A DNA stretch of 40,105 nucleotides from a virus. Taxonomy: Duplodnaviria > Heunggongvirae > Uroviricota > Caudoviricetes. Below are positions 30,492-40,105 of the stretch, in pieces. The number at the start of each line of letters is the position of its first letter. The first letter of the stretch is position 1. The notes beneath the pieces are model-generated. The model saw only the letters and a program-made list of their open reading frames with translations, was not told the origin of the DNA and did not search any database. The stretch lies in the IMG/VR virus record IMGVR_UViG_2537562190_000015; one strand, written 5' to 3'. The translations under genes were made by a program, and so were the position numbers.

Positions 30492-30814
30492 ACTTTCAGG
30501 CCCCTCTCATGTAACCAGTGGGCTGCACGCAGCCTGGCGTTTTCCTCACCGGCAAGCAGTGCGCGGATAATCCCGACCGCCTCGCTGTCGTCGTCCTTCA
30601 CCGCGGTATGAAGAGTTATCCCCCGGGCCACGCCACGCTTTATCGTGATGACGCCTTTTTTCTCCAGTGCGCGAAGATGCTCCACCGCTGCATTCACCGA
30701 ACGGTATCCCAGCATGGTTGCCACCTCCTGATTGGTTGGCGGAAAGCCACGTTCTTGCTGGTAAGAAATCAGCATATCCAGCACCTGCTGCTGGCATTGA
30801 GTTAACGTCGTCAT
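30488..30814 (-). CDS. LexA N-terminal DNA-binding-domain-like protein (no protease domain)
   Basis: 108-aa ORF MTTLTQCQQQVLDMLISYQQERGFPPTNQEVATMLGYRSVNAAVEHLRALEKKGVITIKRGVARGITL closely resembles the LexA winged-helix N-domain (…RQQEVFDLIRDH…[36 protein letters not shown]…), and there is no S24 peptidase part. Confidence 0.65.
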   Translation of the reverse strand: MTTLTQCQQQVLDMLISYQQERGFPPTNQEVATMLGYRSVNAAVEHLRALEKKGVITIKRGVARGITLHTAVKDDDSEAVGIIRALLAGEENARLRAAHWLHERGLKV

Positions 30815-31464
30815 GCCGCCATCTCCCTGACCAGTTTTTCCGCCTGCTGGCGAACCTGCGCCAGAAAGGCCTCACCACATGCCTCAAGTTCATCGCGCCC
30901 GATGTAGCTGATTGCCGGTCCCTTCCAGGTCTTGTCGAAAACAGCAATAGCACCAGCGAAGAAAGCGCCTGTCGGCACCTGCTTCTCATCCTTCGGGATA
31001 AACCAGGCAGGCAGTTCAAAACCAATACGCCCGCGAATAAAAGCAATATGGTCCGCATCTTCCGGCCACCACACTTCGCTGGTGGCAGCTTTGATCAGGA
31101 AAACATAGCGCCCGCCCTTATCACGCATGGCACTGGCATGTTTCATGATGTAACGCATGCCGGTGATGTATTGCCCCTCATGCTGACTGGCGCGGCTGTA
31201 TGGGGGATTACCAAAGGCAGCACCTTTAAGCTCCGCAAGACGTTCTGACCAGTCATGCGCCAGCGCGTTATCTTCCGCCGTGTAATACGCGGCACATTTG
31301 GCGTTATCACCGTCAGTAAACAGATCCAGAACAAACGGGCCAAACAGGGTGTTAATTCCCCAGAAAATGTTGTCCGGCGTGCGCCACTGATCGCCCACTT
31401 CCTTCAGTTCATGGGCTGGTTTGTTCCGCAGTTCCACCAGCGCCTGGCAATATTTATTACTCAT
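30811..31464 (-). CDS. phage Dam-type N6-adenine DNA methyltransferase
   Basis: 217 aa from the ATG overlapping the upstream stop (TAATG); contains the NPPY motif (AFGNPPYSRA) typical of N6-adenine methyltransferases. Confidence 0.7.
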   Translation of the reverse strand: MSNKYCQALVELRNKPAHELKEVGDQWRTPDNIFWGINTLFGPFVLDLFTDGDNAKCAAYYTAEDNALAHDWSERLAELKGAAFGNPPYSRASQHEGQYITGMRYIMKHASAMRDKGGRYVFLIKAATSEVWWPEDADHIAFIRGRIGFELPAWFIPKDEKQVPTGAFFAGAIAVFDKTWKGPAISYIGRDELEACGEAFLAQVRQQAEKLVREMAA

Positions 31465-31958
31465 TAAGCCCCCACGTAATTCCCTGACAGATACCACTCT
31501 TCACCCGATGCAGCGCGCTTGCTGCTTTTCCGTAAGCACCGCTCACGACGCGCCAGAAAATTGTTTCGTTCTGGCTGGGAGTGGCTTTCACGGAATGCCG
31601 CCATCCACACCGTTGCAGCACGACGGTATAAGCCCCTGGACTCCAGTTCTTCAGCCTGGCGGGTCAGGCACAAAATCACCCGTGGATCGTTAGTGCCGAC
31701 ATAGAAATTGCGCACAGGTCTGGTTTCTCGAACTGGTTGTGGTTCCGGTTCCTGCGCTCTCTCAGTCAGGCGCGGGAAATGTCTGCGTGTATCTCCTTCA
31801 CAACGGTGAGCCACACGCCCACTCTGACGTAACTTGCTTGCTGACTGCAGAACGCGCTGCCGTGAGTAACCTGCAAAAGCATCCGCAATGTCTCCGGAAG
31901 TACATCCCGGATGGGCTTCAATGAATTTCTGAACTTCATTCAAAAGACTCATGATCAC
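31464..31958 (-). CDS. PerC-like/YfdN-like protein (164 aa)
   Basis: 164-aa ORF; central …LTRQAEELESRGLYRRAATVWMAAFRE… resembles the PerC-family signature as recalled; start overlaps the replication-gene stop (ATGA). Confidence 0.45.
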   Translation of the reverse strand: MIMSLLNEVQKFIEAHPGCTSGDIADAFAGYSRQRVLQSASKLRQSGRVAHRCEGDTRRHFPRLTERAQEPEPQPVRETRPVRNFYVGTNDPRVILCLTRQAEELESRGLYRRAATVWMAAFRESHSQPERNNFLARRERCLRKSSKRAASGEEWYLSGNYVGA

Positions 31959-32896
31959 CCCCTGAATCCTGCCGGGATCTGGCTGTAGTCCACGTTGTCG
32001 TAACTGGATTTGAAGTACGGGTCTTCGCGTTTTTCGGTGTACGTGCTGACGGACGGTGATAAGCGCAGGGAAAGCTCATCCCATTTTTCCCGCAACTTCG
32101 ACGGGCTGAGCACGTTACGGCACCAGAACGGATCGCGGCTGACGCGGCTGTACATCTCGCAGATTTGTTTGTGAGTACGACCATCCTGCACACACATCAG
32201 GCGAATTTCGTTTGCCCAGGCTGTCCAGTTCGGTTCTTTGGGACGAACCACCTCGCCGTCACATTCGGCGGCTTGCTCGTACAGGGCGATGATTTTTTTC
32301 CAGAGCCACTGTGCGCAGGTCAAATCATCCTGCGTTCCCCACTGGCGCTTTTTAGGGCTGAATACAACCGCATCAGGATGGCGAGTTAAAAAATCCTGTT
32401 CATCCGTCTGCGTGTCCGGTTGCGAAGCGTCCGGACGAGAAGGTTTTTTATCTGACGGATCATGTTTTGATTTTACTGACGGATCCCCGCCAGATTCTGA
32501 CGGGTGAAAACCCGCTTTTTTGCCAGATTTCGACGCATCAAATTTTGACGGGTCAGATTTTGATGCGTCAGATTTTGACGGGTCAGAATCTGACAGTTGA
32601 GAAAATGCCGCTGCCTGAAGCTTCGCAACGTTAAGCTGATAAACATTCGACGCATTGCGGTTACCCTGGCGACGCGCCTTACGCGTTAACCAGCCTTCTG
32701 CTTCCAGCCGTGCGATAGCCGTCCTGACGGTACTCATCCCCGCGCCAATCTGACGGGCAATAGTTTCAATTGATGGCCAGCACACACCTTCGTCATTACT
32801 GAAATCAGCCAGGCGGGCCATAATTGCCACGCTGGATAATTTCATGCCTGATGCAGCGCAACCATCCCATACATAGCCGGTTAATTTAGTGCTCAT
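31955..32896 (-). CDS. replication initiator protein (O-like) containing the origin iterons
   Basis: N-terminal winged-HTH …SSVAIMARLADFSNDEGVCWPSIETIARQIGAGMSTVRTAIARLEAEGWLTRK; the middle encodes repeated SDSDPSKSDASKSDPSKFDASKSG, reflecting DNA iterons, as in lambda O. Confidence 0.75.
   Translation of the reverse strand: MSTKLTGYVWDGCAASGMKLSSVAIMARLADFSNDEGVCWPSIETIARQIGAGMSTVRTAIARLEAEGWLTRKARRQGNRNASNVYQLNVAKLQAAAFSQLSDSDPSKSDASKSDPSKFDASKSGKKAGFHPSESGGDPSVKSKHDPSDKKPSRPDASQPDTQTDEQDFLTRHPDAVVFSPKKRQWGTQDDLTCAQWLWKKIIALYEQAAECDGEVVRPKEPNWTAWANEIRLMCVQDGRTHKQICEMYSRVSRDPFWCRNVLSPSKLREKWDELSLRLSPSVSTYTEKREDPYFKSSYDNVDYSQIPAGFRG
32440..32600. repeat. ori: origin-of-replication iterons (about 6-7 copies of a ~15-17-bp CAGATTTTGACGGGT-like unit)
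   Basis: …CAGATTCTGACGGGT…CAGATTTCGACGCAT CAAATTTTGACGGGT CAGATTTTGATGCGT CAGATTTTGACGGGT CAGAATCTGACAG…, located inside the initiator gene. Confidence 0.75.
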
Positions 32897-32905
32897 GACC
32901 GACCT

Positions 32906-33244
32906 CTATTTCCCTGAATTTACGACGAAACTGTTCGAGCGGGCTGAAGCACTCATGCTCATAGCCTTCGCGGAGGTAGATAACTCGTTGTGTTTCCGGC
33001 TCCCAACGAATGACTCTGACGGGTACTCCGTAGTGATCTTTGAACCAGCGGTTAACTTGTCGCAAAGGACTGTCTCCTTCTGCCGGTTAAAATCACCCAC
33101 AGCCCACTCTGCAAAGCTGTGGGTTACAATTACCCTGCCACCTGGTACATTAACTGCATAGCAATACTCCACCTTCGCTTTTCCACCCGGTACAGGAAGC
33201 GCAATCAGTTGCGAGCGACGGTAGTGTGTTGTTAAACTGTTCAT
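32906..33244 (-). CDS. hypothetical protein (112 aa), translationally coupled between the CII-like and O-like genes
   Basis: Start overlaps the upstream stop; a GAGG lies between its own stop and the O-like ATG; no family recognised; a competing 90-aa antisense ORF exists. Confidence 0.4.
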
Positions 33245-38715: not shown

Positions 38716-39086
38716 TGGAGCCATACAGCCTCACACTCGATGAGGCCTGTCATTTTCTCAAAATATCCAGACCGACTGCCATTAACTGGATACGCACAGG
38801 CCGCCTACAGGCAACACGTAAAGATCCAACCAAGCCAAAATCTCCTTACCTCACAACACGGCAAGCTTGCATTGCGGCGCTTCAGTCTCCGCTGCATACT
38901 GTCCAGGTGAGCGCGGGTGATGGCATAACAGAGGAAAGAAAATGTCACTCTTCCGCAGAAATGAAATATGGTATGCCTCGTATTCGCTCCCGGGCGGGAA
39001 ACGAATTAAGGAATCTCTTGGCACAAAGGACAAGCGGCAAGCTCAGGAGTTGCACGACAAGCGAAAAGCAGAACTCTGGCGAGTAG
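38715..39086 (+). CDS. xis: excisionase-like HTH protein (Xis/AlpA family); 3' extent uncertain
   Basis: [38 protein letters not shown]… is a typical excisionase/AlpA HTH; sits directly upstream of and overlapping int. The frame runs 145 nt into int, so the true stop may be earlier. Confidence 0.55.
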
Positions 39087-40105
39087 AAAAGCTAGGGGAT
39101 TTACCTGATGTCACTTTTGAAGAGGCCTGCCTAAGATGGCTTGAGGAAAAAGCTGATAAAAAATCTCTCGATTCAGATAAAAGCCGGATTGAGTTCTGGC
39201 TTGAACATTTTGAGGGTATAAGGCTTAAAGATATCTCGGAGGCAAAGATTTACTCTGCTGTAAGCAGAATGCATAACAGAAAGACGAAAGAAATATGGAA
39301 ACAGAAAGTTCAGGCCGCCATCAGGAAAGGTAAAGAACCGCCTGTTTATGAACCAAAGCCAGTATCAACTCAGACAAAGGCAAAGCATCTTGCCATGATA
39401 AAGGCCATTCTCCGTGCTGCAGAACGCGACTGGAAGTGGCTGGAAAAAGCGCCTGTCATCAAGATACCAGCGGTCAGAAACAAGCGAGTCAGATGGCTGG
39501 AAAAGGAGGAAGCAAAACGCCTTATTGATGAGTGCCCCGAACCACTGAAATCTGTCGTCAAGTTTGCGCTGGCAACTGGTCTGAGAAAGTCGAACATCAT
39601 AAATCTGGAATGGCAACAAATCGACATGCAGCGACGAGTTGCCTGGGTGAATCCAGAAGAGAGCAAATCAAACCGCGCCATTGGTGTGGCGCTGAACGAT
39701 ACCGCCTGTAAAGTGTTGCGTGATCAAATAGGCAAGCATCACAAATGGGTGTTTGTACATACCAAGGCGGCTAAGCGAGCAGATGGAACATCAACGCCTG
39801 CGGTCAGGAAGATGCGCATCGACAGCAAGACATCATGGCTATCAGCTTGTCGTCGTGCAGGAATTGAAGATTTCCGTTTCCATGACCTCAGACACACCTG
39901 GGCAAGCTGGCTGATCCAGTCAGGCGTCCCATTATCTGTGCTTCAGGAAATGGGCGGATGGGAGTCCATAGAAATGGTTCGTAGGTATGCTCACCTTGCG
40001 CCTAATCATTTGACAGAGCATGCAAGGAAAATAGACGACATTTTTGGTGATAATGTCCCAAATATGTCCCACTGTGGAATTATGGAGGATATAAAGAAGG
40101 CGTAA
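38942..40105 (+). CDS. int: tyrosine site-specific integrase (DLP12 IntD-like)
   Basis: 387-aa [53 protein letters not shown]… with C-terminal catalytic R…[11 protein letters not shown]…Y motifs; the stop codon is the last 3 nt of the window. Confidence 0.9.

Follow-up and report, generated by a model that had tools for sequence, protein, structure and literature searches.

Repeats inside an O-like initiator gene as probable iterons of a lambda-plan phage replication origin

Lambda, P22 and L each carry iterons of their own inside the coding region of the O gene or of gene 18 (PMC8022706). Gene 18 of P22 holds four repeats of ~20 bp and gene 18 of L holds six imprecise repeats of 11 bp, each set being the proposed origin of its phage (PMC8022706), and the anatomy of the lambda origin has been described as well (PMC7466680). 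The Stx phages 933W and P27 have six-iteron origins, and the number of iterons varies, which changes the length of the O linker (PMC7466680). Here we analyse a repeat array in a 40,105-nt stretch of DNA from a virus of the Caudoviricetes (IMG/VR record IMGVR_UViG_2537562190_000015), referred to below, at its full length, as the window. The array lies within the gene for an O-like replication initiator of 313 amino acids (31955-32896, minus strand), and we consider it likely, judging from the sequence and its relatives, that these repeats are the iterons of a phage replication origin that follows the lambda plan and is bound by its own initiator. It is a textbook principle that lambdoid initiator genes hold iterons, and a specialist will not be surprised to meet them here. 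The array also provides an unusually clean example of coding sequence that is under selection at the level of DNA rather than of peptide.

Repeat anatomy and selection on DNA

The array consists of five abutting 15-bp units (32522-32596), each composed of a 12-bp core, TCAAAATCTGAC on the coding strand, and a 3-bp variable spacer. Read along the coding (minus) strand, the units are CTGTCAGATTCTGAC (unit 1, 32596-32582), CCGTCAAAATCTGAC (unit 2, 32581-32567), GCATCAAAATCTGAC (unit 3, 32566-32552), CCGTCAAAATTTGAT (unit 4, 32551-32537) and GCGTCGAAATCTGGC (unit 5, 32536-32522). A spacer of 18 bp (AAAAAAGCGGGTTTTCAC, 32521-32504, coding strand), whose GGTTTT.ACCCG part is kept in homologues while column conservation shows the remainder to be variable, leads to a sixth, origin-proximal site on the same strand (CCGTCAGAATCTGGC, 32503-32489), inside which lies the near-perfect palindrome CAGAATCTG. 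The core, TCA(A/G)AATCTGA, is itself a near-palindrome, and three inverted-repeat pairs fall within the array, so that dyad symmetry is present. Array and sixth site together occupy nucleotides 300-407 of the initiator gene, the part that codes for the linker between the N- and C-terminal domains. A preliminary description of this DNA had counted six to seven copies inside an O-like gene; six are clear, and two CCGTCAG half-sites can be added within the A-rich stretch that follows. The peptide it quoted is correct, being encoded by the array within the open reading frame (ORF) at 31955-32896 (...SDSDPSKSDASKSDPSKFDASKSG...).

Automated searches return the same picture. Tandem Repeats Finder (TRF) delimited the array at 32524-32587 with a period of 15, 4.3 copies, 81% matches and the consensus CAGATTTTGACGGGT, and also scored a period of 30 (88% matches), while a repeat search placed copies in strict 15-bp register across 32521-32603 and one further copy at 32488-32510. 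The clustering of the motif is beyond chance: allowing up to two mismatches, TCARAATCTGAC matches 16 times in the 40-kb window as against 5.4 ± 2.3 times in shuffles, none of 100 shuffles reached 16, and 10 of the 16 matches fall within the 106 bp from 32489 to 32594. Elsewhere in the window this mismatch-tolerant scan found no second cluster of the motif. An Rfam scan gave no RNA family at the repeat site. A terminator-like hairpin on the plus strand, antisense to the initiator, occupies the spacer between array and sixth site (32501-32514; CGGGTGAAAACCCG then CTTTTTTG); its stem is not kept in homologues, and we regard it as probably due to chance.

Downstream of the repeats in the direction of the gene are two A-rich units of 24 bp, each beginning GATCCGTCAG (32438-32485), which form a candidate DNA-unwinding element. 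On the coding strand they read GATCCGTCAGTAAAATCAAAACAT (32485-32462) and GATCCGTCAGATAAAAAACCTTCT (32461-32438). The GC content of this block, 0.42 per 60-nt window, is the lowest in the gene, most of which lies at roughly 0.5-0.6, and the block is conserved at all three codon positions among homologues. At the same position the Gilliamella homologue (L082) has an uninterrupted A/T-only run of ~35 nt.

The protein encoded by the gene that contains these elements aligns end to end with the profile of PHROG 391, 'replication initiation O-like' (E = 1.2e-135; residues 1-313 against profile positions 1-298 of 298), in agreement with its earlier designation as O-like. Its N-terminal part (amino acids 1-100; 32597-32896, minus strand) contains a helix-turn-helix DNA-binding domain of the Pfam HTH_36 family (amino acids 23-70, E = 4e-11), with weaker matches to other winged-helix families (GntR, HTH_29, PaaX, DnaD_N, RP-C and MarR), and is the presumed iteron-binding part. 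It does not belong to the N-terminal family of lambda O, which is absent from the Pfam matches, and BLASTP against lambda O gave no convincing N-terminal alignment. The part of the gene at 31985-32386 (minus strand) encodes the last stretch of the linker together with a C-terminal domain that is homologous to that of lambda O by BLASTP (E = 7e-26, 31% identity over a 216-residue alignment, densest between query residues 182-277 and lambda O residues 187-270), and this part matches PHROG 2357 and 277. A sequence search of solved structures returned only marginal matches to MarR-type helix-turn-helix proteins (E ~0.008), and NCBIfam gave no match above its cut-offs. A structure model of amino acids 1-170, built from a 13-sequence alignment, had a mean pLDDT of 52, too poor for a fold search; at this low confidence it shows no secondary structure after residue 99, and we give it little weight.

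Homologues were collected by scanning one genome per species with an alignment of the N-terminal domain, a survey seeded by a protein search with the N-terminal 100 amino acids that gave mostly truncated or fused fragments. The scan yielded 80 loci, with N-terminal identities from 100% down to 56%. One identical copy, a pair of truncated fusions and two fragments were set aside, which left 74, and addition of the Citrobacter phage phiNP brought the set to 75 homologues. These come from more than 25 genera, from the Enterobacterales and Gilliamella, including Citrobacter, Kosakonia, Kluyvera, Buttiauxella, Yersinia, Rosenbergiella, Tatumella, Pantoea, Erwinia, Rahnella, Ewingella, Providencia, Proteus and others. 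The array is present in all 75, whose N-terminal identities run from 90% down to 56%; it begins ~300 nt after the start of the gene, keeps the 15-bp spacing and has 2-9 copies, most often 4-5. Some of the distant members (L073-L076) show the extended palindrome GTTCAGATTCTGAAC, together with a change from STVRTAI to STVITAI, and the sixth site is kept also in loci with a different array core (L073, L074 and L076). In the distant homologue of Tatumella saanichensis (L077) the array has grown, at gene nucleotides ~315-600, into at least four copies of a 60-bp super-repeat, each of four 15-bp sub-units, that encodes KTGPSEPQGPKSGLSESEGL.

Within the units of this family, conservation follows the DNA. 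In a logo built from 339 units of 70 loci, unit positions 1-3, which form the variable codon (GCA, CCG, CTG, GCG, ACG, GGG and others), carry 0.5-0.8 bits, and the 12-bp core carries 1.2-2.0 bits, third codon positions included. Codons were counted over 375 in-register units from 69 loci with no sequence filter. Lys is encoded by AAA 235 times and by AAG never, compared with an AAA:AAG ratio of 217:154 in the N-terminal domains of the same genes. The first Ser of the unit is TCA in 323 of 354 cases and otherwise only TCG (AGC, AGT, TCC and TCT never occur among the 354); TCA accounts for 79 of the 686 Ser codons in the N-terminal domains. At the third codon of the unit, the residue is Lys in 235 units, Glu in 64, Asp in 37 and Asn in 35, and codon 4 encodes Ser, Phe or Pro and codon 5 Asp, Ser, Glu, Gly or Val. 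Nominal Fisher P values (1e-40 for Lys, 7e-151 for the first Ser and 1e-11 for Asp) overstate independence, since units and loci are related, but the direction of the codon bias is unambiguous despite this kinship.

Alignment is unambiguous over the non-repetitive block next to the array (32438-32515), for which 72 aligned sequences were compared. Where the amino acid is the same, on average 88% of codons in this block are identical to those of the window, versus 42% in the N-terminal domain, whose synonymous sites are nearly saturated among homologues. Conservation at the three codon positions is 0.85, 0.84 and 0.82 in the block, and 0.86, 0.92 and 0.55 in the N-terminal domain. The columns of the sixth site are among the most conserved. 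Compared with phiNP, two runs of 46-50 nt are free of differences in a gene that is otherwise ~80% identical with many third-position differences. Because synonymous codon positions are kept while the encoded residues change radically, these comparisons indicate that selection acts on the DNA of the repeats and not on the peptide. The preliminary description had named lack of conservation in homologous initiator genes as a result that would refute it; the homologues have the array in the same place and with the same period throughout, conserved as DNA, and do not refute it. Its interpretation has the best support that a comparison of sequences is able to offer.

The gene is also modular, and the repeats travel with one particular module. 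Among homologues, the N-terminal domain plus repeats is joined to at least four C-terminal types: Phg_2220_C (Pfam) with a ...PxGFRG tail (44 loci), Phg_2220_C lengthened by a long extension and lacking the tail (16 loci), a lambda-O-like C-terminal domain with an extension and no tail (8 loci), and a lambda-O-like C-terminal domain with the tail (4 loci, the window included). Phage phiNP has this N-terminal domain with its repeats, at 82.7% nucleotide identity, followed by a different C-terminal half. Conversely, mEp460_4F5 shares the C-terminal half (96.8%) and has a different N-terminal domain, with its own repeat of 23-bp period at the equivalent position. SfV orf39 has a third N-terminal domain, again with its own repeat, of ~24 bp, at the equivalent position. 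Exchange of C-terminal modules takes place in a mosaic zone (32418-32446) at the far end of the putative origin, where identity with phiNP ends at ~32418 and identity with mEp460_4F5 begins at ~32443-32446, at the distal edge of the A-rich block. Whichever C-terminal domain follows, the repeats are always inherited with the N-terminal DNA-binding domain.

A proposed origin bound by its own initiator, and the alternatives

We favour an origin with iterons bound by the initiator because the repeats lie between two protein domains, adjoin a conserved A-rich block, are inherited together with the N-terminal domain and have precedents in lambda, P22 and L. By analogy with lambda, binding, opening and helicase recruitment would build on the observed anatomy and constraint as follows. 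Copies of the initiator would bind the near-palindromic cores TCA[A/G]AATCTGA through their N-terminal helix-turn-helix domain and assemble a nucleoprotein complex on the six sites. This complex would strain the adjacent A-rich stretch with its two GATC sites (32438-32485), which would open. The C-terminal domain and tail would then bring in the host DnaB helicase. Since the phage has no helicase or loader gene, this step would have to use host factors, probably DnaC and possibly the partner of DnaT, the protein whose nine C-terminal residues recur in the tail of the initiator.

Several observations weigh against this interpretation. The period of 15 bp (~1.4 helical turns), with abutting units, departs from the ~20-24-bp spacing of the lambda iterons, and the A+T content of the presumed unwinding stretch is ~69% over its richest 35 nt (a hand count), interrupted by GATCCGTCAG and far less extreme than that of lambda. 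An AT-rich stretch had been expected just downstream of the repeats, and the stretch present there, A-rich on the coding strand, is only moderately A/T-rich. Because no loader is encoded, helicase recruitment has no demonstrated route. The repeats of SfV and mEp460_4F5 that serve as comparisons are weak arrays (TRF scores 74-77). The Gilliamella homologues, the most distant ones, with N-terminal identity down to 56%, keep the common core unchanged; fine co-variation between recognition helix and iteron was accordingly not seen within the family, and we make no claim of it. Finally, the literature that we searched yielded no description of this iteron set or origin and no published assay of its function.

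If the repeats mattered only as protein, they would encode a disordered, low-complexity linker of Ser, Asp, Lys and Pro that arose by slippage, and their DNA would have no function of its own. The peptide at amino acids 100-170 is of low complexity and has no predicted secondary structure in the low-confidence model, and the range of copy number among homologues is what slippage would be expected to produce. However, synonymous codons that would be neutral to the peptide are essentially absent from the units, radical changes of residue are common (K/E/D/N, S/F/P and D/V/G), and the adjoining block is equally conserved at its three codon positions. Moreover, slippage or concerted evolution homogenises repeats within a lineage and would not hold one 12-mer across so many genera while a 3-nt spacer drifts, and we regard a protein-only repeat as very improbable. 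We think it just as improbable that the DNA is conserved through the recent horizontal spread of a small segment and not through selection. These genes are strongly mosaic, with junctions that adjoin the segment, and the two difference-free runs shared with phiNP could, taken alone, be read as a recent exchange. Yet conserved and variable positions alternate on a scale of 12 + 3 nt, the pattern holds from Escherichia to Providencia, Rahnella and Gilliamella, and copy number, spacer triplets and the spacer between array and block differ among loci, unlike what is expected of a block that moved recently.

Somewhat more plausible, but still unlikely, is a functional DNA element that is not an origin, such as an operator array for autoregulation, a site for some other protein, or a locus for copy control or incompatibility. 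Comparative data reveal that selection acts on DNA and not what that DNA is for, and the repeats of iteron plasmids serve copy control too. Position between two domains next to a conserved A-rich block nevertheless points to an origin, as do the strict co-inheritance with the N-terminal DNA-binding domain over four C-terminal types and the precedent of lambda, P22 and L (PMC8022706). Furthermore, the motif forms no other cluster in the 40-kb window, and the parts of the window that were examined yielded no rival origin candidate.

The preliminary description had also proposed that the iteron defines the replication specificity of this prophage. The prophage does have an iteron type of its own in the sense that lambda, P22 and L do, but that type is not private to it, as the core is common to a very wide family. 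An origin of this kind would provide a defined replication-specificity type for classifying the prophages that carry the initiator, a site at which to ask whether cryptic copies are still able to replicate and, as initiator plus ~160 bp, a compact replicon of possible use as a vector.

The C-terminal tail, the methylase and the distribution of the gene

The last nine codons of the initiator gene (31958-31984, minus strand) encode SQIPAGFRG, which is identical at eight of nine residues to SQIPPGFRG of Escherichia coli DnaT, and the two sequences form the extreme C-terminus of their respective proteins. No similarity between initiator and DnaT is detectable beyond these nine residues. The initiator is, by sequence comparison, not a homologue of DnaT, and the database label 'primosomal protein', which the match to DnaT probably explains, is not a family assignment. 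A similar tail, [IV]PxGFR[GS], occurs on two unrelated C-terminal domain types among the homologues and on SfV orf39.

No helicase or helicase-loader gene was found in the window between 29273 and 32896 or in the 25 homologous loci that were inspected, and none is annotated in the second half (~16 kb) of the SfIV genome (L085), in which the initiator is the only annotated replication gene. Downstream of the initiators in the window, SfIV and the inspected loci are genes for PerC-like proteins, methylases, LexA-like proteins, RusA, DUF968 and ParB-HTH proteins. The tail may represent mimicry of a host protein for the recruitment of helicase. How DnaT recruits DnaB-DnaC has been stated to be unknown (PMC13377028), which makes an initiator with a DnaT-like tail and no loader a lead worth testing.

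Two GATC (Dam) sites, 24 bp apart, lie in the A-rich block. The first (32482-32485) is present in all 71 loci with an anchorable block and the second (32458-32461) in 61 of the 71. A gene for a phage Dam-type adenine methyltransferase (30811-31497, minus strand; Pfam Dam, E = 1e-45) is located nearby, and 47 of 71 homologous loci have a gene for an adenine methylase no more than 3 kb away from the initiator. Dam-methylated GATC sites are present in the unwinding region of oriC and of the P1 plasmid origin. Because these sites are conserved and an adenine methylase is nearby, the data suggest, more weakly than they suggest an origin, that methylation state modulates its firing.

These features can be combined into a more specific proposal, that of an origin with a solo initiator whose nine-residue tail, copied from the host restart protein DnaT, recruits host DnaB-DnaC, and whose firing is also gated by methylation of the two GATC sites in the unwinding element by a phage-borne Dam. 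The term 'initiator-solo' reportedly goes back to a 2006 review of phage replication modules and did not turn up in the literature that we searched. It is compatible with the identity of the tail, its occurrence on two unrelated C-terminal types, the absent loader and the position of GATC sites beside a methylase, none of which shows function, and we consider it possible but doubtful. If it is true, the tail would point to the partner on which DnaT itself docks in order to bring in the helicase.

The initiator gene corresponds to the O or 'primosomal protein' gene of the serotype-converting Shigella phages SfII and SfIV. It is 98.6-99.9% identical in nucleotide sequence to the O genes of SfII, SfIV (98.7%) and several E. 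coli phages, including vB_EcoM-689R6, and SfIV is an isolated and characterised phage (PMC3851460). The gene or parts of it are present in 2724 of 5426 complete E. coli genomes. Many E. coli genomes hold decayed derivatives. Some of these join the ~80 N-terminal residues to a RusA domain, and in others the match is confined to the promoter-distal three-quarters of the gene (query positions 1 to 709 or 712, the end away from the start codon), one of these being annotated 'phage replication protein O'; some frameshifted copies retain the repeat DNA. The module also occurs, at 86-90% identity, in two circular E. coli records labelled 'plasmid', L088 (NZ_CP081716.1, 37.7 kb) and L089 (CP085522.1, 41.5 kb), the annotated one of which (L088) has lysis genes and further genes of phage type as well. 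We considered whether these are bona fide plasmids that use the module as a replicon, and rejected this because circular records of 37-41 kb look like whole phage genomes and have no replicon typing. As phage genomes, they are not independent evidence of origin function.

In the window itself, the initiator is preceded by cI-like, cro-like and cII-like genes and two small ORFs, as in a lambdoid early region, and is followed by a PerC-like gene, the Dam methylase, a LexA-like DNA-binding protein and RusA. A pair of minus-strand ORFs (32886-33065 and 32906-33244) shares 160 nt in different frames, and each of the two matches a family (Pfam DUF4222, E = 9e-19, and PHROG 1170, E = 1e-67, respectively). 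The first is annotated in RefSeq and the second in the SfIV record, and one of them is probably an annotation artefact that has spread into a family. Elsewhere, positions 132-330 (minus strand) give the only Rfam match in the window, a full-length hit to RF02111 (IS009) with 224 bits versus a gathering score of 117.

Comparison with lambda, P22, L and related phages

One of the closest parallels is lambda (NC_001416, iterons at 39034-39118). In both phages, the middle of the initiator gene, where the linker is encoded, holds direct repeats with internal dyad symmetry, and these occupy the same relative place (nucleotides 349-433 of O in lambda and 300-407 in the window gene). In both, an A-rich stretch follows the repeats in the direction of transcription, and the two initiators have homologous C-terminal domains. 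The lambda record annotates recombination points just past the origin, where the window has its junctions too. By eye, the sixth site with its flank (32481-32503, CCGTCAGAATCTGGCGGGGATCC) seems to resemble the palindromic segment that lambda has just past its A/T-rich region (L084, ~862-884, CGTCAGAGAATTCTGGCGAATCC), with the lambda segment on the opposite side of the A-rich stretch.

There are also differences. Lambda has four iterons of 18 bp whose starts are 20-24 bp apart, whereas the window has five 12-bp cores that abut at 15 bp and one separate site, and the iteron sequences are unrelated. The N-terminal family of lambda O is not HTH_36. Lambda needs the P loader encoded beside O, and the window has no such gene. 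The A-rich stretch of the window is less extreme than its lambda counterpart and contains two conserved GATC sites.

The short and numerous repeats of phage L resemble the 12-bp cores, but repeat sequences and initiator family differ in both P22 and L, which moreover encode their own DnaB-type helicase (gene 12), whereas the window phage does not. Stx phages 933W and P27 share with the window family a copy number that varies between relatives (2-9 in the latter), and differ in having true lambda-type iterons and O/P pairs that have been tested biochemically. SfV orf39 and mEp460_4F5 agree with the window in gene position, C-terminal tail or domain and downstream genes, and differ in their N-terminal domains and in the ~24-bp and 23-bp periods of the repeats that they carry at the equivalent position. 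The proposed origin thus fits the pattern known from lambda, P22, L and the Stx phages, and what sets it apart is its iteron sequence, its 15-bp register, its N-terminal family, the absent loader and the pair of GATC sites.

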